A stretch of 64,000 bases of DNA from Candidatus Beckwithbacteria bacterium GW2011_GWC1_49_16 (GTDB lineage: Bacteria > Patescibacteriota > Microgenomatia > UBA1400 > CG1-02-47-37): assembly GCA_001029675.1 (NCBI GenBank), contig CP011210.1:841280-905279 (forward strand). Direction: 5' to 3'. The translations under genes were made by a program, and so were the position numbers. The notes under the pieces were generated by a model. The model was not told where the DNA came from. It saw nothing but the letters and a program-made list of their open reading frames with translations, and did no database searches. Positions 24,666 to 36,579 of the stretch are shown piece after piece (the stretch's first letter is position 1; each line of letters opens with the position of its first letter).

Positions 24666-25487
24666 TTGATGAAAAATTACTTTGCCTTTATAGACGAATC
24701 AGGAAACTCGACGCAGGAAAGATTTTTTGGTCTGGGTTTAATGCTGATGGACGACGAAATTGGTGATTTCTATGATGCTATGAAGCCTCATTATGAAAAA
24801 GCTTTTAACATTGCCAAGTCAAACAAAATAACCAGAGTTAAAGAACTAGAAAAGAATGCCGACCTGAAACAGTTGTCTAGTTTAGCAAGTAGCCATATCC
24901 ATTTTGAATTAAAGTTTAAGTATGTAAACTTTACTAATAATGTAGTTTATCGAGACTTGGTAGCCACCTATTTTAACTTCAAAGAGGTAAGGTTTTGCGC
25001 CTTGATTATTGATCGTCAAACTTATTCAAATACAACCAAAAAGGGAATTACCTTAAATCCCTGGGATGTTTATATTAATCAAGCCTCCATGCTTCTGGCA
25101 AACAACATCAGGGAAATTACCCCGTGTAATGTTTGCGTTTTAGCGGATGATTTGTCAAAGCCCACATATATCAAAAAGTCGTTTGAAAAATCTCTCAAAG
25201 ATGCGCTTGAATACCGATTGAAAAAACGAGGTATCAGCAATAGTGTGTTTGGAGTTACAAGATTGGAGTCTCATTCATCTTTACTATTGCAAGTTTCAGA
25301 CATACTTTTGGGAGCGGTAATGTATGATTATAAGAAAAAAATTGGTTTAATTTCCGAAAAGCTTAGTCAAAGACAAGAGATTGTCACTGAAAAGATTCGC
25401 AGTATTCTCAAAACTAAAAGCTTAGCTGTCAATAAAACATTTCATCAACCCAACTATTTTTCCGTTTGGGAACTGAAGAAGCCATAA
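24666..25487 (+). CDS. DUF3800 family protein
   Basis: N-terminal YFAFIDESGN motif characteristic of DUF3800. Confidence 0.5.
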   Translation: MMKNYFAFIDESGNSTQERFFGLGLMLMDDEIGDFYDAMKPHYEKAFNIAKSNKITRVKELEKNADLKQLSSLASSHIHFELKFKYVNFTNNVVYRDLVATYFNFKEVRFCALIIDRQTYSNTTKKGITLNPWDVYINQASMLLANNIREITPCNVCVLADDLSKPTYIKKSFEKSLKDALEYRLKKRGISNSVFGVTRLESHSSLLLQVSDILLGAVMYDYKKKIGLISEKLSQRQEIVTEKIRSILKTKSLAVNKTFHQPNYFSVWELKKP

Positions 25488-25588: not shown

Positions 25589-26092
25589 TTAATTTTTTAA
25601 AACAACTAAACCTTCGCAAACTTTAGCTTGCAAAAGAACCACTTGCTTTTTAATCATCTGCTTTTTAAACCTTTTTTCAATTTGCTTAAAGAAATTCTTT
25701 TGGGCTGGGCTAAGCTTATCGGTTCTTTTAACCTCGGCGAAGAAAAATTCTTTACCCTTATAAACAAAAAGGTCTGGCGGCTGGGTTTTCTTCCTTTTAT
25801 CTTCTCGGCGCAAAAACCTAAAACCGTCTTCGCCGACAAATTTTTTGACAATTTGCTGTTTTCTGGGATGGGGGTTGTAAATGTACTGCTCCACCAAAAC
25901 ATTGAAGCCCTGCCGGTAGTAATGGATGGCCCTTAACCACTCGATAAAATGCCAGCTCGGCTGGCTGACGGTCAACTGCAAATCTTTATCGTCAAACAGC
26001 TTGGGATATTTCTTTTTTAGTTCCTTTGCCAACTTACCGGTTTTCCACCGATCCCAGAGCTTTGGATCATAACTAAAGTACTCGGTTTTCAT
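25589..26092 (-). CDS. VRR-NUC domain nuclease
   Basis: PDLFVYKGKEFFFAEVKRTDKLSPAQKNFFKQI matches the VRR-NUC PD-(D/E)XK core (PDL...EVK...LSxxQ). Confidence 0.5.
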   Translation of the reverse strand: MKTEYFSYDPKLWDRWKTGKLAKELKKKYPKLFDDKDLQLTVSQPSWHFIEWLRAIHYYRQGFNVLVEQYIYNPHPRKQQIVKKFVGEDGFRFLRREDKRKKTQPPDLFVYKGKEFFFAEVKRTDKLSPAQKNFFKQIEKRFKKQMIKKQVVLLQAKVCEGLVVLKN

Positions 26093-26214
26093 ACAAGGCG
26101 TTGACTGCTTCAGTGTAGCATGGAGTCAGTTTCTTGGGGGGGGCGTTGTGATGATATAGTTTGCACGAGATATTGGTAGTTGACCCAGACGAAATAGTCG
26201 GGTATTCTCGAGGT

Positions 26215-26850
26215 ATGAAAAAAGTAACTGCCCGGCAAAAAGAGTTGTTAAAGGTTGTTTACGACTATATTAAAACAACTGGTTATCCTCCGACCATAAA
26301 GGAGATGAGAGATAGTTTGAAGGTCACCTCTAATCAGTCTGTCATCGACCTACTAGAACACCTAGAAAATAAAAAGTTGATCAAGCGACAAGAAGGTGTA
26401 GCTAGAAGCATTGTGATTTTACCTTTTGGGTACGAAGCCATTGCTAAAACAGCCTTGGCTCCATTCCTGGGCATGAGTCACGCCGGATCCCCCATTGACG
26501 CTATACAAATAGATGGCGAGTGGCAAGAGCTTTCTAACGAGGCCGCTCAGCTTAAGGATAATGTTTTTTTGCTTAAAGTTTTGGGTGACTCGATGATAAA
26601 CGCAGGCATTGATAACGGTGACGTTGTTTTAGTCAGAGTGCAAAAGGAGTTTGTGTCCGGAGACATAGTACTGGCTGAGGTTGAAGGTGAATCAACAATT
26701 AAACGGTTTATGTCTGATGACACTCCTCCATTTATTTACCTAAAGCCTGAGAATCCAAAACATAAAGTAATTCCATTTAACGAAAGAACTAAGCTTAAGG
26801 GAAAAATAATCTCTATCTTAAAAGAGGGGTCCTGGAAGTCTATTAACTAA
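26215..26850 (+). CDS. lexA: LexA-like repressor (wHTH plus S24 peptidase)
   Basis: N-terminal LexA DNA-binding domain (ARQKELLKVVYDYIKTTGYPPTIKEMRDSL). Ala-Gly cleavage site (SHAGSP). Ser/Lys dyad (VLGDSM ... TIKRF). Stop is 1 nt before the methylase start. Confidence 0.8.
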   Translation: MKKVTARQKELLKVVYDYIKTTGYPPTIKEMRDSLKVTSNQSVIDLLEHLENKKLIKRQEGVARSIVILPFGYEAIAKTALAPFLGMSHAGSPIDAIQIDGEWQELSNEAAQLKDNVFLLKVLGDSMINAGIDNGDVVLVRVQKEFVSGDIVLAEVEGESTIKRFMSDDTPPFIYLKPENPKHKVIPFNERTKLKGKIISILKEGSWKSIN

Positions 26851-26851
26851 T

Positions 26852-28807
26852 ATGCCAACTAAAAAGCCCAATAAAGCTGAAGAAATTATCAAAAAGGTTT
26901 TTAAAGAGCCGGATATTGCCCATGGCCTTAAAGAGTTTGAAGACTTGGATTTGAAAACTATCCTTTATATCACCGAGGAAGAAAAAGGCAGATATTTTGT
27001 GAAAGATCTTAAATCCGGCAAAACAAGGCTGGTTTATGACGAGACCAAAAAAAAGGGCAAGCCAGAGGAGATTGTGCGCCAGCTTTGGCTTTACAAGCTC
27101 AACAAAATCTATGGCTATCCTTTTGAAAGGATTGAAGTAGAAAAAAGTATCCATTTCGGCAGAGAGATTAGAGCAAAAGCGGCTGACATTGTGATTACCA
27201 AAACAGACAAAATCACACCCTATATTATCGTTGAAGTAAAAAAGCCTGATGAGAAAAAAGGCATAGAACAGTTAAAGAGTTATCTATCTGCCGAGGGTAG
27301 CGAAATTGGCGTTTGGTCAAACGGGATAGAAAAGGTGGTGCTCTACCGCCCTTACCCTAAAGAATATGAAGACTCTTTGAGTGATATTCCCAGAGCAGAC
27401 CAAAAGATTGACGATTTATTCGAAGTTAGGCGCACTTGGCAGGAATTAAACCCTAAGTTTGACTTTGTCCATATTGTCAGAAGCATCGAAGAGGCGGCGC
27501 TGGCTGGTTCCGGGGCGAATGTATTTGAAGAGATTTTTAAAATTCTTTATGCCAAGCTATTTGACGAAAAACTGGCCCGGGATCAACGGAAAGATCAAGA
27601 GGTGTTGTTTAGAAAATATAAAGATCCGGAAAAAACTTATGAGGTGATTAACCAACTTTTTAAAAATGCTGCTAGGCAATGGCCGGATACTTTTGAGCTG
27701 TCTGACAAGATTAGGCTTTCTCCCCAGAGACTTAATGTTTGTGTGCCATTTTTAGAAAAAGTGCGTTTGTTTGAAGTGGGCCAAGGAGAACTGGAGATTA
27801 TCGATAGCGCTTTTGAGTACTTAATTACCGAGGTTTCCAAGGGTAAAAAAGGGCAGTATTTCACCCCCCGCCACGTAATTAAGATGTGTATCAAGATTGT
27901 GAACCCCAAAACAAGCGAATATGTGATTGATCCTGCCTGTGGCTCGGGAGGGTTTCTGCTTCACACCATGTATCATGCCTGGGAAGAATTACCGACCGAA
28001 GCGGCTAAAAAAGAGTACGCCGCCAAATATTTATACGGCATTGACTTTGACGATAACATGCGCCGGATTTCCCAAGCGCTGATGCTAATTGCCGGAGACG
28101 GCAAGCACCATATTTTCAAACGCAACTCGCTTGACAGTCGTGACTGGACCGGCTATGAAGCCGAAGAAGCCAGAGTAGAGTTTAAAAAACTGCTACACAA
28201 ATTTGATAATCCCGCTGATGACAAGGAAAATCAAAAAAGCTTTAGGCATTTGGATTTCGACATCCTGCTGACAAACCCACCGTTTGCCGGAGAGAATAAG
28301 GGCGACGCCGGACTTTTAAGACAATACGAATTGGCTAAAAGCGACGGTAAGCTAAAAAACAATGTCGATCGGCATATCCTATTTATCGAGCGATCGCTAG
28401 ACGCTGTCCGCCCTGGGGGCAGACTAGCGATAGTTTTACCCCAAGGGGTGCTTAACAATACCAATATGGCCTACATTCGCCAGTGGCTGTTTGATAAGGC
28501 CATAATTTTGGCGGTGGTCGGGCTTCACGTCAACACTTTTAAACCTCACGCGGGCACGAAAACGTCCGTGCTATTTTTGCAAAAGTGGCCCGAGGACAAA
28601 AAACACCTCAAAGACTACCCTATTTTTATGGCGGTTTCCAAAAAACCCGGCAAGGACAACTCCGGCGACTATGTTTATAAAAAAGACGATAAAGGCAACT
28701 TTTCCTACGACGTTAATGGTCGCAAGGTCCTGGATCACGACCTAGACGAAATTGCGGATAAGTTTATCGAGTTTGCTAAAAAGGAGGGTTTTAGTTTTTC
28801 GACATGA
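26852..28807 (+). CDS. Restriction-modification fusion: HsdR-N-type PD-(D/E)XK nuclease domain plus N6-adenine DNA methyltransferase (Type IIB/BcgI-A-like)
   Basis: Residues about 100-180: ADIVITKTD...PYIIVEVKKPD...GIEQLKSY...GVWSNG, equivalent to the HsdR N-terminal endonuclease motifs. MTase motif I DPACGSGGFL and motif IV LLTNPPFAG. Confidence 0.8.
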   Translation: MPTKKPNKAEEIIKKVFKEPDIAHGLKEFEDLDLKTILYITEEEKGRYFVKDLKSGKTRLVYDETKKKGKPEEIVRQLWLYKLNKIYGYPFERIEVEKSIHFGREIRAKAADIVITKTDKITPYIIVEVKKPDEKKGIEQLKSYLSAEGSEIGVWSNGIEKVVLYRPYPKEYEDSLSDIPRADQKIDDLFEVRRTWQELNPKFDFVHIVRSIEEAALAGSGANVFEEIFKILYAKLFDEKLARDQRKDQEVLFRKYKDPEKTYEVINQLFKNAARQWPDTFELSDKIRLSPQRLNVCVPFLEKVRLFEVGQGELEIIDSAFEYLITEVSKGKKGQYFTPRHVIKMCIKIVNPKTSEYVIDPACGSGGFLLHTMYHAWEELPTEAAKKEYAAKYLYGIDFDDNMRRISQALMLIAGDGKHHIFKRNSLDSRDWTGYEAEEARVEFKKLLHKFDNPADDKENQKSFRHLDFDILLTNPPFAGENKGDAGLLRQYELAKSDGKLKNNVDRHILFIERSLDAVRPGGRLAIVLPQGVLNNTNMAYIRQWLFDKAIILAVVGLHVNTFKPHAGTKTSVLFLQKWPEDKKHLKDYPIFMAVSKKPGKDNSGDYVYKKDDKGNFSYDVNGRKVLDHDLDEIADKFIEFAKKEGFSFST

Positions 28808-30549
28808 GATACAAAAAATTTCTAATTCAAAATTATAAAGCCATCAAAAAAGCAACCATAGAATTGACAGACGATGGTCTTGTCTTGCTACTAGGAATAA
28901 ACGAGTCTGGAAAGACGAGTGTTCTACTGGCTATAGAGTCATTTGATCATACAAATGACCCTACCGATGAGAATCTGAAACTAAAACGGTATAAGCAGAT
29001 AAGAAATAAAAGAGAGATTACGGGTGTTAGCGAGGCCAAAATAACAGCCGAGATACAAATGGAGAAAAACGACCAAAAGAGGATCAAAGAAACGCTTTTA
29101 ACAGATGGTTTTTTAGACAAGGATCGAGAAAGAGAATTTCAAGAGCTCCTTAAGATAGTAGGTGTGATAAAGATATGCAGAAAATTTGTTTATCAAGATG
29201 CAGAGTTTAATCAAGTTGTCTATGAACTTTTGGATAACGGTAAAAAATTCTTAAGCCTCTTAAAAGGTGAAATTAATGAGGATGCAGTTTGCAAGTCTAT
29301 TCTAAAAATCTCCCCATCAGTTCAGTATTTTGAAGATTTCAAAGACCAGATACCAGAATTTATTAGTCCTGTTCCAGGCGCACAGTATTATGATTTAGAT
29401 TGGGTCAATACACTGGAAGGTCTTTTCTATCATGCGGACCCAAAGCTGTCGATATCAGCCTTTGAGGCAATCAAAGATGATGTTGCTAGAAAAACCTTAG
29501 AAAGAAGGGTAAACAACAAATTAAATAAACAATTCACTCAGCGCTGGAATAAATTAAAAGGCGTAAAAACTATTCATCAGGCAGACCTTATTTATCTAAA
29601 GACAGAACAGCTTTTTACCTTTCAAATAGTAGGGGCTGATAGGGCAACAGTTTTTTCTGTTGATGAAAGAAGTAAGGGGGCCTTGTGGTATTTCACTTTT
29701 CTTTTAAAAACTGAGTTTAGGAAACGTAAACTGAGAGCACAAACTGGAAAGACTTTATACCTAATAGATGAGCCTGGTTCCAACTTGCACTCATCGGCTC
29801 AGACAAATATGAGAGAGGATTTTAAAACTCTGGCTAGCGACTCTAATGTTATATACACAACTCACAACCAGTATCTTATTGATACAACTAACCTTTCAAG
29901 CACCTATATCACTGAAACTTCTGGAGGCGTGATCAAAGCTACTAAGTATAGCCAGTATTTACAAGGACGCAGTGTTAAGACTTCTTACTTCCAGCCACTA
30001 CTGGATGCAATTAAAGTACAACCTTTTTCGCTAGAAATTCCATGGGAAAAAACATTAATCTGTGAAGGAATATATGACTACATTGCTTACTCCATAGCTT
30101 TTGAAGATTTACTTGGTAAAAAGCTGGGTTTCTCCATTATTCCGGGAGAAGGTGCTTCTAGTCTTTCACCTCTCATATCTCTGAGTATAGCCTGGGGTTC
30201 AAAGTTTTTGGTGTTGCTCGATAGAGATGAAGAGGGGGTGGAACAAGCTGAAAGGTACTCTGGTAATTTTAAAATTTTCAAAGATAAAATCTTAACTTTA
30301 GGTGATATTGCCAAATTGGCAAAACAGAATTTTGAAGTGGAAGACCTTTTTTCTGTCCGAGATAAAATGAAACTTGCTACTTTGGCTGGAGTGTCCTTGG
30401 TCAAACCTCCAACGAAGGGGTCTTTTGACCAAATTTTGGCTACCATATTTCTCTCACAACCTTTAAGGAGAAAGGTTCAAGACAATTTGGAAAAGAGCAC
30501 AAAAAAAACATTTGAAGGAATTTACAGACATTTAAACTCTCTTTATTAA
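28804..30549 (+). CDS. OLD-family ATP-dependent endonuclease (ABC-type ATPase plus Toprim)
   Basis: Walker A LGINESGKTS, Walker B LYLIDEPGSNLH, H-loop TTHNQ. C-terminal Toprim: TLICEGIYDYIAY (catalytic Glu) and FLVLLDRDEEG (DxD). ATGA overlap with the upstream gene. Confidence 0.75.
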   Translation: MRYKKFLIQNYKAIKKATIELTDDGLVLLLGINESGKTSVLLAIESFDHTNDPTDENLKLKRYKQIRNKREITGVSEAKITAEIQMEKNDQKRIKETLLTDGFLDKDREREFQELLKIVGVIKICRKFVYQDAEFNQVVYELLDNGKKFLSLLKGEINEDAVCKSILKISPSVQYFEDFKDQIPEFISPVPGAQYYDLDWVNTLEGLFYHADPKLSISAFEAIKDDVARKTLERRVNNKLNKQFTQRWNKLKGVKTIHQADLIYLKTEQLFTFQIVGADRATVFSVDERSKGALWYFTFLLKTEFRKRKLRAQTGKTLYLIDEPGSNLHSSAQTNMREDFKTLASDSNVIYTTHNQYLIDTTNLSSTYITETSGGVIKATKYSQYLQGRSVKTSYFQPLLDAIKVQPFSLEIPWEKTLICEGIYDYIAYSIAFEDLLGKKLGFSIIPGEGASSLSPLISLSIAWGSKFLVLLDRDEEGVEQAERYSGNFKIFKDKILTLGDIAKLAKQNFEVEDLFSVRDKMKLATLAGVSLVKPPTKGSFDQILATIFLSQPLRRKVQDNLEKSTKKTFEGIYRHLNSLY

Positions 30550-30556
30550 AATTGCC

Positions 30557-31957
30557 ATGGATTTTTCAATAATCCAAAAATCTCAACTTGAAGGACCGAA
30601 TCGGCTGGATGCGGAATATTTTCAACCACAATATTTGGAATTAGAGAAGAATATTTTACAAACAGATACACTTATAAAGTGGGAAGAAATAGATGGTAAA
30701 TTCATTACAGGTCCGTTTGGTTCGGAATTTAATGTTGAAAACTACGATGAGAACAGCCAACACAGATATGTTAGGGGTAAGGATGTAAAACCCTTCTTTT
30801 TATCGACGGATGATAATGTTTACATACCTGAAAAAGATTTTGTAAGACTTAAAAAGTACTCTCTTGAAGAAGATGATATTTTAATATCTGTGGTTGGGAC
30901 TTTGGGAAATGCAACAGTTATAGACAGCTCTAACTTACCTGCCATATTCAGTAGCAAAAGCACTACATTTAGATCCAGAAATATTAATGCGTATTATTTA
31001 TTAGCATATTTAAACTCAAAATATGGTCAGGGGCTTTTGTTAAGATGCTCAAGAGGTCAGGTACAGACAGGGCTAAATATAGTCGACTTGAAAACTTTAC
31101 CTATTTACTTGCCTTCTACAGAAAAGCAAGACGCCGTGGCCTCTTTAGTTAAAAAATCTTACGATTTGCTAGGGCAATCAAAATTTAGGTATGTGGAAGC
31201 AGAAGACTTACTTTTTGAGGAGTTGGGATTGAAAGATTTTGAGGTTCCGGAAGATTTGACTTGGGTGGTAGGTTATTCGGAAGTTGAGAAGGAAAATCGT
31301 GTTGATGCCGAGTACTTTCAACCAAAGTACGAAAAAATTGTTTCAACAATAAAATCATATAGTAAGGGTTGGGACTTTTTAAAAAATTTAACAACTTTGA
31401 TTGGCCATCCTTCAAACCCTCCATATGCTCGCGCGGATTCAATTGATAAAACTTTTATCATCACTCAAAAACATCTTTCAGACTATTTTCCTTTAGATAA
31501 TTTTTGGGAAGATAAAAAAGCACTATATACAACTAATGACTTTATAAATAAAAATAAAGAATTTCTTTTAAGGGAAAACGATATTCTTCTTTATTCAGTC
31601 GGAGCCTATATAGGTAAGACAAACATCTATAATTCAAATACAAAAGCTACAATTGGAAGCTTTTTAACTTTAGTTCGGGCAAAACAAGACATTATCAACC
31701 CGTTTTACCTACTAGTTTTCTTGAATTCTGAAATTGGACACCTTCTTACACGTAGAAATTCAAAAGGATTGGCCCAGCAATACATTTACCCCTATGATAC
31801 AAAAAACATTCCAGTTCCAAAAATTGATAATGGTGTTCAAGAAGAAATTGGGAAGTTTATCAAAAAGGGTTACGAGGCGAGGAAGAAATCAAAAGAGTTA
31901 CTTGAAGAAGCTAAAAGGAAAGTTGAAGAAATGATAGACAAGGGCAGTAAAAACTAA
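30557..31957 (+). CDS. hsdS: Restriction-modification specificity subunit HsdS with two TRDs
   Basis: Two-fold internal repeat with conserved LDAEYFQPQY / VDAEYFQPKY blocks at residues about 18 and about 251. 466 aa. Confidence 0.8.
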   Translation: MDFSIIQKSQLEGPNRLDAEYFQPQYLELEKNILQTDTLIKWEEIDGKFITGPFGSEFNVENYDENSQHRYVRGKDVKPFFLSTDDNVYIPEKDFVRLKKYSLEEDDILISVVGTLGNATVIDSSNLPAIFSSKSTTFRSRNINAYYLLAYLNSKYGQGLLLRCSRGQVQTGLNIVDLKTLPIYLPSTEKQDAVASLVKKSYDLLGQSKFRYVEAEDLLFEELGLKDFEVPEDLTWVVGYSEVEKENRVDAEYFQPKYEKIVSTIKSYSKGWDFLKNLTTLIGHPSNPPYARADSIDKTFIITQKHLSDYFPLDNFWEDKKALYTTNDFINKNKEFLLRENDILLYSVGAYIGKTNIYNSNTKATIGSFLTLVRAKQDIINPFYLLVFLNSEIGHLLTRRNSKGLAQQYIYPYDTKNIPVPKIDNGVQEEIGKFIKKGYEARKKSKELLEEAKRKVEEMIDKGSKN

Positions 31958-31964
31958 TGATCTT

Positions 31965-32159
31965 ATGAATATTAAAGAACTATTAAAGGAAATGGAAAGA
32001 GTTTATGAGCCCCAAGAAATAGAATTTGATTTTACTAGGTTATTCTATAAACTTGAGAAGATTTGCCCGGAGCATGGAGTTGGAGAGAAAAATTTAGACC
32101 TACAAAGATATGCTTGTCCGGCTTGCAATAAGATTCTAAAGAAAAAGAGGCGTTTATGA
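31965..32159 (+). CDS. Small zinc-ribbon protein with basic tail
   Basis: CPEHG...CPAC, C-terminal KKKRRL. 7 nt after the hsdS stop. Confidence 0.4.
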   Translation: MNIKELLKEMERVYEPQEIEFDFTRLFYKLEKICPEHGVGEKNLDLQRYACPACNKILKKKRRL

Positions 32160-32476
32160 CCAAACAGGCTTTGCTGGAAAAACTGGAAGTAAAAGTTGGA
32201 AAAACTTTAAGGTTTATAAACGAAGTTTTATTCCCTAGAAACGACGTAAATAGAGATATCTTGGATAAATATAAAGTGGTGCTCAATAACTACTTAAAAA
32301 GTAAAAATATTGACACACTACATCAGCTGAAAGATTTACATTATAGACCAACACCTGAGGGTTCTCAGACTGACTACACTGAAGGCACGGGTTTGGCTTT
32401 TGATGGAAAACACACTACGCTTTCTGACCTGCTTATGGAAATTGAAGATTTAATTGTAATAATTAGAAAGAATTGA
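32156..32476 (+). CDS. Hypothetical protein
   Basis: 106 aa. ATGA overlap with the upstream ORF. Confidence 0.35.
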   Translation: MTKQALLEKLEVKVGKTLRFINEVLFPRNDVNRDILDKYKVVLNNYLKSKNIDTLHQLKDLHYRPTPEGSQTDYTEGTGLAFDGKHTTLSDLLMEIEDLIVIIRKN

Positions 32477-32479
32477 TAA

Positions 32480-32938
32480 ATGAGTGATAAAAAGAAAAAA
32501 GGAAGAACTGGAGAGCAAGAGGTGGTTGATTTAGTAAAATGTCCAAATTGTTTAAGTAAACTAATCTTGCTACCAGAAAGTTTTCCGATGTATGACGTGC
32601 AATGTTCGAGGTGTCTTTTTCGAGCCCAAGTGAAAACAGTGCATAGCAAGCCTAAAGCCTCAATTTTCGGCGCCGGATGGAGAATTCTTGAAAAAGTTTT
32701 AAAGGCTGGATGCTTGATGCCTCAATTAATGGTTAACTTCAAGTGGAGTTCAAGAAACGGTGGCTTAAATCAAGAAATTCGTTTTTACCCATTCATTGCT
32801 AAAGGCAATATCCAAAAATATAAATTGTCTGCAAAAGCGAGAAGGGCTAACTATTGGATGTTTAAATACGTGAAGTTAGATAAAATACCCTATCTACCCT
32901 TATATCAACAACACGATCCTCTACGGACTAATGAGTAG
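32480..32938 (+). CDS. Zinc-ribbon protein, possible degenerate PD-(D/E)XK (Hjc-like) nuclease fold
   Basis: GRTGEQEV (GxxGE-like motif I), CPNC..CSRC insertion, YDVQ and AQVK as candidate D/(E/Q)xK. Speculative. Confidence 0.3.
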   Translation: MSDKKKKGRTGEQEVVDLVKCPNCLSKLILLPESFPMYDVQCSRCLFRAQVKTVHSKPKASIFGAGWRILEKVLKAGCLMPQLMVNFKWSSRNGGLNQEIRFYPFIAKGNIQKYKLSAKARRANYWMFKYVKLDKIPYLPLYQQHDPLRTNE

Positions 32939-32964
32939 AATTTTTTAGGTTATAAGGTTCTTCT

Positions 32965-33030
32965 ATGACCCATAAAAAATTTCTGGCAAAGTATCGCAAG
33001 TTTTTGAGGGAGAACCGAGAAAATTTCTAA
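32965..33030 (+). pseudogene. 5' remnant of an AlkD-like DNA alkylation repair gene
   Basis: Encodes MTHKKFLAKYRKFLRENRENF-stop. Nucleotide and peptide similarity to the start of the intact gene at 34463 (MTPQKFLATYRKFLKENYNAE). Confidence 0.55.
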
Positions 33031-34462: not shown

Positions 34463-35209
34463 ATGACCCCGCAAAAATTCCTGGCTACGTACCGCAAGTT
34501 TTTAAAAGAGAATTACAACGCCGAGCGAGCCAGGCAGGAGAAAAGATACCTCTACTCTACCCTTAAGCACTACGGCGTGTCGGTGTGGCAGATGAGGAAG
34601 TTTTTTAAGAAATGGCAGAAGGAGATGGCAAGATTAAACAAGAAACAGGCTTTGGCCTGGGCGAAGCTTTTCTGGGCCCAGCCGTCGCACGAGGAGAAAA
34701 GCTTGGCTTTGGGAGTTCTTAACATTCATAAAGACAAACTCACCCTGGCTGATATGCCCTTGATTGAAAAAATGATGCGCGAGTCGCGCGGCTGGGCTTT
34801 GCTTGACTACCTGATGATTCCGCTGATGCCGGGGATTTTAGAGAAAGATAAACGGGCATACAAATATCTGACCAAATGGATTAAGGACAACGATTTCTGG
34901 GTACGGCGGTCGGCACTTTTGGCCCAAAACTTGTTTTTTCGCTATGGCAACGGCGGTGATAAAAAACTATTTTTTAAACTGGCCGAGAGCCAATTTGACG
35001 AGGCTTGGATTGATAAAGTTTACCAAGATAGGCTGATGAACAAACGAGCCAAGTTTTTTATCAGAAAGGCCATCGGTTGGGCTTTGCGGGAGATGGGCGA
35101 GAAAGACCCAAAGGCGGTTTTGGCCTTCACCAAGAAAAACAAGAGTAAGATGTCGGGACTAAGCTATCGGGAAGCGACCAGGAAGATAGAGCCTAAGTTT
35201 GGTATATAA
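34463..35209 (+). CDS. DNA alkylation repair protein (AlkC/AlkD-like HEAT-repeat glycosylase family)
   Basis: Helical-repeat protein. N-terminal and overall pattern typical of the DNA_alkylation family. Confidence 0.55.
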   Translation: MTPQKFLATYRKFLKENYNAERARQEKRYLYSTLKHYGVSVWQMRKFFKKWQKEMARLNKKQALAWAKLFWAQPSHEEKSLALGVLNIHKDKLTLADMPLIEKMMRESRGWALLDYLMIPLMPGILEKDKRAYKYLTKWIKDNDFWVRRSALLAQNLFFRYGNGGDKKLFFKLAESQFDEAWIDKVYQDRLMNKRAKFFIRKAIGWALREMGEKDPKAVLAFTKKNKSKMSGLSYREATRKIEPKFGI

Positions 35210-35562: not shown

Positions 35563-35888
35563 AATATCAACATCGGGATTTGGCCAAGGGTAAGTGGAGG
35601 AAATTGACTTTGATGGAACAGATGGCCAACGTGGGCAGTGAGGTGTCAAGAACGATTAAGTGGAAGAAAAAAGATAAAAAGTACGCCCAAATGGCTTTTT
35701 GGCGGGCTTTGGAGCTTTTGGGTTTGACCATTAACGACCCCAAAAACAAAGCTGGGCTTAAGGAAATCTGCCGGGCCAAAGAAATGCTGGTCGATTGGTA
35801 TTTTGATAATCCGCTTTATAGAAGCAGTGATGAGGAGTGGCAGAGGTATTTTAACCAATTTAACTGGGCGGCAAGAATTAAAAGGTAG
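35559..35888 (+). CDS. Hypothetical protein
   Basis: 109 aa. Confidence 0.4.
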   Translation: MKYQHRDLAKGKWRKLTLMEQMANVGSEVSRTIKWKKKDKKYAQMAFWRALELLGLTINDPKNKAGLKEICRAKEMLVDWYFDNPLYRSSDEEWQRYFNQFNWAARIKR

Positions 35889-35895
35889 GTTTTTT

Positions 35896-36579
35896 ATGTA
35901 TAAGCTCTCGCCATCTGACTTTGCTTACCTTTATGAGGAGTGCAAGCTGTGTTACTGGCTTAAAGTCAAAAAGGGCATTTACCAACCAAGCATGCCCATG
36001 CCGGGGGTGTTTTCGGCGATTAACACCAGGATCCAGGGGACTTTGATCGGCAAAAACTTGCAAAGTTTATCAGCCGACCTGCCCCAGGCGGTGGTGAAAA
36101 CCCAAGAGGGGTGGGTGGAGTCTAAGCTCGTGCCGGAGACCGGCGTTTACATCAAAGGTAAGTATGATTTGCTGGCTCAAGCTGCCGACGGGGGCAACTT
36201 TTTAGTTGACCTTAAGATCAGCCAGCCGCATGAGGATAAGATTGACAAATACAAAACCCAGCTCTCGGCCTACAAGTTTGCTTTGGAAAACCCTAAAAGC
36301 GGAGTGGGAGTTAAAATCGCCCGGATGGGATTACTCATCTTCTACCCTGACGCGGTGGCTTTTGAAAATGGCGCGGCTAGAGTCAACTTCCCCCCAAGCT
36401 GGCTGGAAATTCCCCTGGATGAGGCAGGCTTTTTGGCTTTTGCCAGAGAGGTTAACGCTTTGCTTGACGGGCCGGCGCCTGAAGAAGGGACGGGCTGTAA
36501 GTGGTGCCAATACCGGCATAAAGGTGAGGAAGAGACCCACGAAGAAGACGAGGTCAAGCAGCAGGATATTCCTTTTTGA
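35896..36579 (+). CDS. Cas4/RecB-like PD-(D/E)XK nuclease with Fe-S cysteine cluster
   Basis: N-terminal CKLC and C-terminal CKWC cysteines flank a core with DLLAQAADGGNFLVDLKIS (D...DxK-like). The real start is probably MYKLSP at 35896; the track ORF begins upstream. Confidence 0.5.
   Translation: MYKLSPSDFAYLYEECKLCYWLKVKKGIYQPSMPMPGVFSAINTRIQGTLIGKNLQSLSADLPQAVVKTQEGWVESKLVPETGVYIKGKYDLLAQAADGGNFLVDLKISQPHEDKIDKYKTQLSAYKFALENPKSGVGVKIARMGLLIFYPDAVAFENGAARVNFPPSWLEIPLDEAGFLAFAREVNALLDGPAPEEGTGCKWCQYRHKGEEETHEEDEVKQQDIPF

Follow-up and report, generated by a model that had tools for sequence, protein, structure and literature searches.

What is the gene of an OLD-family nuclease doing inside a restriction-modification (R-M) operon? 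In a 64,000-nucleotide stretch of the Candidatus Beckwithbacteria bacterium GW2011_GWC1_49_16 genome (contig CP011210.1, positions 841,280 to 905,279; hereafter the window), a lexA gene is followed on the same strand by the gene of a fused nuclease-methyltransferase (the RM fusion, M), the OLD gene and an hsdS-like specificity gene (S). The nuclease could be a subunit of the surrounding enzyme, a guard that monitors it, a selfish passenger or an independent defence protein that shares the operon. The last of these is the reading we favour, with a probability of roughly 55%: a LexA-controlled R-M operon of type IIB-like layout would carry the OLD gene as cargo, in a slot prone to recombination, and the nuclease would act in defence autonomously.

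The OLD gene is intact and genuinely nested between the RM fusion and specificity genes. Its ATG (28804-28806) overlaps the TGA (28805-28807) of the upstream 651-aa open reading frame (ORF), giving the sequence cgacATGAgat with ATGA at 28804-28807. The stop codon TAA (30547-30549) is separated by 7 nt (aattgcc) from the hsdS ATG at 30557. A first-pass annotation, made from the sequence alone, had described the same overlapping start and a closely following hsdS, and both are confirmed. The junctions point to translational coupling of the OLD gene with the R-M-type operon. GC content falls from ~0.46 to ~0.36 exactly at the M/OLD boundary (window GC profile, 28600-33000) and stays low (0.32-0.39) across OLD, S and three small ORFs, regaining ~0.45 near 33000; the compositionally distinct block measures ~4.2 kb, and the drop at the boundary is in keeping with OLD as cargo.

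Whether the R-M enzyme depends on OLD was addressed with a genome scan using M, which gave 38 loci (L013-L050 in our numbering) that by label represent many lineages of the Candidate Phyla Radiation (CPR) and in which M is 60-78% identical. These loci were then searched by tblastn with the window proteins. A lexA homolog lay directly upstream of M in 37/37 loci reaching far enough, and an HsdS homolog, 29-47% identical, lay downstream in all 35 with enough sequence. OLD was detected at the M-S junction in none of the 38. The conserved core order is lexA, RM fusion, variable slot and hsdS, and the distance from M stop to S start spans 2 to 1,725 nt. In five loci the junction is empty (2-78 nt); the others (~30) hold one or two same-strand slot ORFs that fall into ~30 mutually unrelated clusters. 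By Pfam the cargo comprises NYN, DUF3800 (two clusters), DUF6602, a trypsin-like peptidase, DUF4145, PemK/MazF, DUF2806 and a weak RnlA-type match, and several cargos that have no Pfam match look from their sequences like membrane or coiled-coil proteins. Every cargo is coupled as OLD is, with a start that overlaps the M stop or lies at most ~20 nt from it and a stop that abuts the S ATG. Since all cargos show equal coupling, the ATGA overlap belongs to the slot and is no sign of co-evolution. The first-pass annotation had concluded from the junctions that OLD is an integral operon member; its absence from all 38 related lexA-M-S loci, where the slot is either empty or filled from unrelated families, argues against this. 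The M-S junction is a hypervariable cargo slot for interchangeable accessory genes. We did not find an operon of this layout with a cargo slot described in the papers searched, though that search was not aimed there.

The genes flanking the slot differ in their own conservation. M, for which roughly 7,800 homologs are known, is 73-80% identical among the 120 best-listed database clusters; lexA is ~50-64% identical across the related loci and S is hypervariable. The unusual conservation of M suggests either strong constraint or frequent transfer.

The distribution of OLD is independent of the host R-M operon. The order lexA-M-OLD-S was repeated in only one other contig, L006, which was found via the OLD protein (OLD 65%, M 76% and S 32% identical). 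More than 100 database clusters of M have at least 73% identity, compared with two of OLD above 60%. At 38-56% identity the OLD relatives are lone genes that adjoin insertion sequence (IS) elements, an Mrr gene, an integrase island, an N6_N4 methylase or housekeeping genes. A metagenome scan for OLD gave 80 loci, 71 with callable neighbours, and 61 of these 71 lacked a type I R-M neighbour. R-M families are the commonest neighbours of OLD, still as a minority (Methylase_S 7, N6_Mtase 5 and ResIII 4 of 125 neighbours). This distribution across related loci and relatives marks OLD as an independent inserter, and co-evolution with the hsd genes, which the first-pass annotation had envisaged, is not borne out by homologs that mostly stand alone. 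Viral contigs gave just six distant OLD relatives (26-43% identity), so that the scan provides no evidence for a phage-borne OLD clade.

Some individual loci in these scans have arrangements of their own. OLD homologs of 29-51% identity are nested, with overlapping or short-gap junctions throughout, in canonical type I operons, as HsdS-OLD-HsdR in L087 (4772-10640) and L099 (3748-9589) and as HsdM-OLD-HsdS in L055 (704-5031) and L124 (4492-8450). In L125 (3745-7821) a ATAGTCGGGT operator precedes a 484-aa ORF that unites an S24 peptidase with a LexA DNA-binding domain and an N6_N4 DNA methylase. Downstream of this ORF come a restriction endonuclease of the MvaI/BcnI type and then an overlapping OLD homolog (31% identity). 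This LexA-methylase fusion may be real or may be an assembly or frameshift artefact. L070 carries an S24-like gene and then OLD.

The nature of the other cargos and of the genomic neighbours bears on the idea that OLD is a selfish or addiction element. Like MazF-type cargos, it would mainly stabilise the operon or island through post-segregational killing or interference with competing elements and would have no part in phage defence. The slot does carry a PemK/MazF toxin and other toxin-like genes elsewhere, OLD relatives adjoin IS elements and integrases, and P2 Old kills recBC hosts (PMC7049728). However, an antitoxin-like partner is not evident in the slot, and the OLD members of known biology, P2 Old, GajA and retron Eco8, act in phage exclusion (PMC10568477). 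We regard the selfish role as quite improbable.

The assignment of the protein to the OLD family, with an ABC ATPase head, a Toprim domain and catalytic residues that appear intact, is well supported, as profile matches, invariant residues and model folds agree. All five motifs that the first-pass annotation had quoted in naming an OLD-family ATPase-Toprim protein are present. In an alignment of 51 OLD homologs (36-65% identity), the residues of the ATPase motifs that are named in Table 1 are invariant, and the Toprim residues E421, G422, D425, D473, D475, G478, E513 and K538 are likewise kept in 51/51. Pfam AAA_15 (8.6e-18) covers residues 1-359. OLD-like_TOPRIM (PF20469) matches residues 416-475 at 5.8e-4 with 20.8 bits, under the 23.2 cutoff; the same profile matches 12/51 homologs, at best with 5.1e-5. 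Among PADLOC profiles, AriA (4e-20) and Old (1e-18) lead, followed by many GajA, PtuA and mad3 matches to the ATPase head.

Structural modelling, which had been suggested as a check, agrees with these matches. The AlphaFold model of the full-length protein (pLDDT 87.3, pTM 0.78) has as its best full-length PDB matches GajA (8sm3_A, 2.3e-15; 8u7i_A, 7.4e-15) and the Thermus scotoductus (Ts) OLD protein (6p74, 3.5e-14). For a separate model of residues 400-581 (pLDDT 90), the top six PDB matches are OLD Toprim structures (6nk8 A and B, 6njw, 6p74, 6njv and 6njx), and the nearest folds include the Bp/Xcc OLD Toprim domains. PDB searches with sequence gave less: the single OLD sequence found generic ABC ATPases only, the 51-homolog profile found Ts OLD and retron/Septu ATPases through the ATPase head only, and a profile of the C-terminal domain found only small Toprim proteins, non-significantly (E about 2), though with the E and DxD in register. 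With the sequence profile non-significant by itself, the Toprim assignment follows from the fold search of the domain model together with the conservation pattern.

The Toprim residues can be placed on the metal A, metal B and Lys scheme mapped in Ts OLD and P2 Old (PMC7049728). Metal A is bound by E377, D431 and D433 in Ts OLD and by E398, D453 and D455 in P2 Old, to which E421, D473 and D475 correspond here. For metal B the residues are D381, S478 and E480 in Ts OLD, E402, D541 and E543 in P2 Old, and putatively D425 and E513 in this protein; the basic residue is an Arg in Ts OLD, K550 in P2 Old and putatively K538 here. D425 (at E+4), E513 and K538 occur in the expected order, the comparison being one of order and spacing. 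No helicase, reverse transcriptase (RT) or separate Toprim partner adjoins the OLD gene, and the Pfam scan of window ORFs turned up no helicase domain; two 640-aa ORFs ~12-17 kb away had no Pfam match.

We next consider the enzyme that surrounds the OLD gene. The first-pass annotation called the upstream gene a methylase, which is correct as far as its N6 methyltransferase domain goes, but the protein is not a plain HsdM and is fused with a PD-(D/E)xK domain of the HSDR_N_2 type (Pfam HSDR_N_2 2.6e-21 and N6_Mtase 5.5e-36; PADLOC MTase_I 1.5e-162). The D...ExK and NPPF motifs of M are invariant in 39/39 M homologs. Among solved structures, M is closest to the type IIB enzyme RM.BsaXI (2.6e-29), the match covering M residues 213-582 only. 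S matches PADLOC Specificity_I at 6.8e-41. The window has no HsdR, its longest ORF being 651 aa, and no ResIII or helicase match among the ORFs scanned against Pfam, though an HsdR could lie elsewhere in the genome. With no HsdR in the window and a nuclease motif in M itself, a classical type I R-M system was ruled out for the host operon. The layout, with nuclease and gamma-class N6 methyltransferase in one subunit and a separate S, is type IIB-like, and type IIB-like cleavage is a prediction from it.

An HsdR-less system might be thought to draw its motor and nuclease from OLD, with M-S recognising and methylating DNA and OLD providing ATP-dependent cleavage. The absence of HsdR and of any window ORF above 651 aa would suit this, as would several likenesses to the MADS system: M and S are related to mad2 (NCBIfam MAD2, 1e-87) and mad5 (MAD5, 2.8e-42), the ATPase head matches mad3 (2e-11), and the order M-ATPase-S is that of mad2-mad3/4-mad5. 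According to the MADS preprint, mad3 is needed for restriction and not for methylation. However, the MADS matches of M and S lie under the NCBIfam cutoffs (295 bits against 720 for MAD2, 145 bits against 400 for MAD5), the mandatory mad6-8 are absent, and the mad3 match is weaker than those of AriA and Old. The same M, 73-78% identical, occurs in operons with an empty slot or an unrelated cargo, has its own invariant nuclease motif and resembles a self-sufficient type IIB enzyme. As the same M works beside empty or unrelated slots and carries this conserved motif, a restriction-subunit role for OLD is very unlikely. The nuclease motif of the R-M enzyme, kept in all 39 homologs, speaks in favour of the autonomous cargo reading.

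A guard or backup effector, similar to PrrC or PARIS, has more to recommend it; the first-pass annotation had proposed an anti-anti-restriction or abortive-infection sensor of the PrrC kind. Here the M-S complex would restrain OLD or be monitored by it, and a phage anti-restriction protein that disables the complex (the DNA mimics Ocr and ArdA, or an Stp-like peptide) would unleash OLD, which would degrade DNA or RNA/tRNA and abort the infection; the slot as a whole would serve as a docking site for exchangeable backup effectors. The recurrence of OLD homologs within R-M operons and the rank of R-M families as the commonest direct neighbours of the OLD family are consistent with such a role, as are the other slot cargos, among which PemK/MazF, NYN, DUF4145 and DUF3800 are typical toxin or abortive-infection families. 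AriA, the best PADLOC match of the ATPase head, senses Ocr in PARIS, where AriB degrades RNA/tRNA. For BREX and RM-like loci, a role as backup effectors has already been suggested for OLD-ABC/Toprim modules (PMC12839542), and the MADS genetics described below likewise favour a guard. On the other side, most members of the OLD family, including the nearest beyond L006, are without an R-M neighbour, which argues that OLD needs no R-M partner. The S alleles beside the two slot OLDs are just 32% identical and the nested OLDs adjoin at least two different M families, making a conserved physical OLD interface unlikely, and five operons work with an empty slot. We hold the guard role to be a tentative possibility, and somewhat unlikely.

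Several of these observations, together with others, weigh against an autonomous cargo nuclease. Ten of the 71 metagenome loci (~14%) have OLD directly adjoining a type I M, S or R gene, with tight overlaps and differing M families, a higher frequency of nesting than expected of a wholly independent gene. The order M-OLD-S is found in L055 and L124 with a classical HsdM and in L115 with a distant relative of this M, and S-OLD-R is found in L087 and L099 with overlapping stops and starts. OLD also follows right behind a lexA or S24 gene in two further contigs, L125 and L070. The genetics given in the MADS preprint imply that an ATPase in this position can be linked in function to its M and S neighbours: besides the requirement for mad3, encoded between M and S, in restriction, cells do not survive deletion of the S gene mad5 unless they have lost mad2 or mad3 as well. 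Finally, none of the bacterial class 1 OLDs has so far been demonstrated to defend alone (PMC10568477).

The regulation of the operon was examined at its lexA end. The first gene is a LexA equivalog by NCBIfam TIGR00498 (160 bits against a cutoff of 111) with Pfam LexA_DNA_bind and Peptidase_S24 matches. The ORF list begins it at TTG 26161, and ATG 26215 is the likely start because the promoter falls within the TTG extension; its stop at 26850 directly precedes the M start at 26852. The promoter element, of the form TTGACn-CCAGAAnAAATAGTCGGGTA-TnnnnT, is kept between -35 and -10 upstream of lexA across the related loci (L006, L013-L050), and in L030 and L044 it holds the perfect palindrome ACCCGACTAAATAGTCGGGT. 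A single copy of the exact 10-mer ATAGTCGGGT lies closely upstream of lexA in 30/39 M-type loci and also in L125, and 0 unrelated loci have it; in the window there is a single zero-mismatch copy of the operator-like element, at 26192-26204. Upstream of lexA there is no match to the known LexA-box consensus sequences tried (GAAC-N4-GTTC, CTGT-N8-ACAG and others). The conserved palindrome is a candidate CPR LexA box, through which LexA probably autoregulates the whole operon. A DnaA-box-like motif, (G)TTATCCACA, lies 20-60 nt upstream of the lexA -35 in L014, L030, L032, L034-L039, L041, L043-L047, L049 and L050, and is not evident upstream of the lexA promoter in the window itself.

The autonomous reading can be put as a sequence of proposed steps. 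The predicted enzyme would use its ABC ATPase to control a two-metal Toprim nuclease, in keeping with a clade whose members mostly act as single-gene defence or exclusion modules. The gene would have been captured in the hypervariable slot between the RM-fusion stop and the specificity-gene start of a lexA-headed operon that is widespread in CPR bacteria. There it would be co-transcribed and translationally coupled with the R-M genes, and therefore probably under the LexA-type operator, to be expressed or boosted on DNA damage or infection. OLD would be dispensable for the R-M enzyme and would not co-evolve with it. We infer a defensive role exercised autonomously, as a second, independent layer in which invader DNA, or host DNA as abortive infection, would be nicked or degraded under ATP regulation.

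A broader and more speculative proposal, which we consider unlikely, extends to the slot as a whole. The slot would be the dedicated dock of an SOS-controlled modular defence platform in CPR bacteria, in which recombination between the conserved M 3' and S 5' ends exchanges one effector for another (OLD, MazF, NYN, DUF3800, DUF4145, proteases and membrane proteins). As backup or abortive-infection arms, the effectors would be tied in function to the restriction complex or to the cleavage of LexA. OLD would then represent a single allele in a general guard layer of the PrrC kind, which if true would be new for OLD nucleases and for CPR bacteria.

CPR bacteria have few known defence systems, and in a very conserved lexA-linked R-M operon of this group the analysis reveals a cargo slot that is both precise and recurrent. 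The slot is the more interesting result, the OLD gene itself adding little: OLD nucleases, the OLD classes and the presence of OLD genes within methylation-based defence loci are already known (PMC12839542, PMC10568477). Tight operon nesting with an ATGA overlap does not imply subunit status. The loci form a natural panel, with the same RM and S genes around an empty slot or ~30 inserts, that could be used to test autonomy against restriction guarding and could help decide whether single-gene OLDs defend alone.

Table 1. Features of the lexA-headed operon and of the OLD protein (window coordinates; residue numbers refer to the 581-aa OLD protein unless stated)
Feature	Position	Strand	Description
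Operon promoter with operator-like element	26180..26208	+	TTGACC-CAGACGAAATAGTCGGG-TATTCT; promoter scan
lexA, first operon gene	26215..26850	+	LexA DNA-binding domain and S24 autopeptidase
RM fusion (M)	26852..28807	+	N-terminal PD-(D/E)xK nuclease domain (HSDR_N_2) and gamma-class N6-adenine methyltransferase (DPACG, NPPF), 651 aa
OLD-family nuclease gene	28804..30549	+	581 aa, ATG start
ABC ATPase head			~residues 1-400
Walker A GINESGKTS	28894..28920	+	residues 31-39; G31, N33, E34, S35, G36, K37 invariant, 51/51 homologs
ABC-signature-like SKGALW			residues 290-295; S290, G292 invariant, 51/51 homologs
Walker B LYLIDEP	29755..29775	+	residues 318-324; D322, E323 invariant, 51/51 homologs
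H-loop TTHNQ	29857-29871	+	residues 352-356; H354 invariant, 51/51 homologs
Toprim and C-terminal helical region			~residues 410-581
Toprim catalytic core	30055..30237	+	LICEGIYD residues 418-425, LLDRDEEG residues 471-478
Downstream Toprim residue E513	30340-30342	+	invariant, 51/51 homologs
Downstream Toprim residue K538	30415-30417	+	invariant, 51/51 homologs
Specificity subunit S (HsdS-like, two target-recognition domains)	30557..31957	+	466 aa; Pfam Methylase_S, two stretches

Further genes were noted around the operon. Just upstream lie a low-GC DUF3800 gene (24666-25487), of the same family as some slot cargos, and a weak VRR-NUC-like ORF on the opposite strand (25589-26092). Three genes downstream of OLD, a 152-aa protein (32480-32938) has a weak match to the DpnI/Dam-replacing family (1.2e-5, just under the cutoff). 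A 72% identical homolog of this protein lies in L053 (3131-3595), downstream of a 53% identical OLD, and the gene upstream of that OLD encodes a partial N6_Mtase, 34% identical to this M. A linkage of the DpnI-like gene to OLD was rejected, one other contig being too little; the pairing may be a chance co-occurrence within defence islands. Further downstream, a DNA alkylation repair enzyme homolog (34463-35209) and a PD-(D/E)XK protein of the PDDEXK_1 family (35803-36579) place DNA-repair genes in the neighbourhood of the lexA operon.

Among known systems, the class 1 OLD proteins, P2 Old and the Ts OLD protein of 6P74, are similar in having no helicase, RT or separate Toprim partner, and this protein follows their residue scheme for metal A (E, DxD) and putatively for metal B (D at E+4 and a later E) and the conserved Lys, with 6p74 among its top structural matches. 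Sequence identity to Ts OLD is ~12%, however, and Ts OLD lacks the C-terminal helical region of this protein, for which the best domain match is the C-terminal region of the class 2 Bp OLD. By definition a class 1 OLD is a lone gene with no other defence genes nearby (PMC10568477), whereas this gene is embedded in an R-M operon. The first-pass annotation's label of a standalone class 1 OLD is thus accurate in that helicase, RT and AriB partners are lacking, but the gene falls outside the context definition of the class because other defence genes adjoin it. It matches no other named OLD class.

In Gabija, GajA (a class 2 OLD) is the best full-length structural match and accounts for multiple PADLOC matches to the ATPase head. 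Identity is only ~13%, however, and, as the first-pass annotation had noted, no GajB/UvrD-like helicase adjoins the gene or occurs among the scanned window ORFs, which ruled Gabija out. PARIS was ruled out as well: it consists of the two genes AriA and AriB, whereas ATPase and Toprim are here fused in one 581-aa polypeptide of which the AriA profile covers residues 1-359 only.

PrrC, RloC and the 'rlo' genes offer the precedent of an ABC-type NTPase-effector gene within a restriction operon, where EcoprrI keeps PrrC silent until the T4 Stp peptide releases it (PMC1484252, PMC3458546). The effector here has a Toprim DNase-type fold and is not an anticodon nuclease. Linkage to R-M genes, in the form of a type Ic hsd locus, is obligatory for prrC, whereas most members of this OLD family lack an R-M neighbour. 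A PrrC-type anticodon nuclease was ruled out on these two grounds. The OLD-ABC/Toprim 'backup effectors' (NAR 2026, PMC12839542) are closer in architecture, being Toprim-linked OLD ABC ATPases in or beside the core of a methylation-based defence operon. They differ in context from the present gene, whose host is a lexA-headed, HsdR-less RM and S operon of CPR bacteria and not BREX, and whose position is a general cargo slot.

MADS resembles the operon in having M and S relatives in mad2 and mad5, an AAA_15-type ATPase gene between them and a regulator gene first. In contrast, the ATPase here is fused to Toprim and is replaceable. The authors' model in the preprint makes mad6, mad7 and mad8 mandatory; none was found, and the downstream ORFs of 64, 106 and 152 aa have no MADS match. 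With these genes absent and M and S under the MAD2 and MAD5 cutoffs, MADS was ruled out. The host enzyme is most similar to the type IIB systems BsaXI and BcgI, which share the nuclease and N6-methyltransferase subunit, the separate HsdS-like S and the lack of HsdR. The operon described here departs from them in three respects: the nuclease domain of M is of the HSDR_N_2 type, lexA heads the operon, and a cargo slot splits the RM gene from S.

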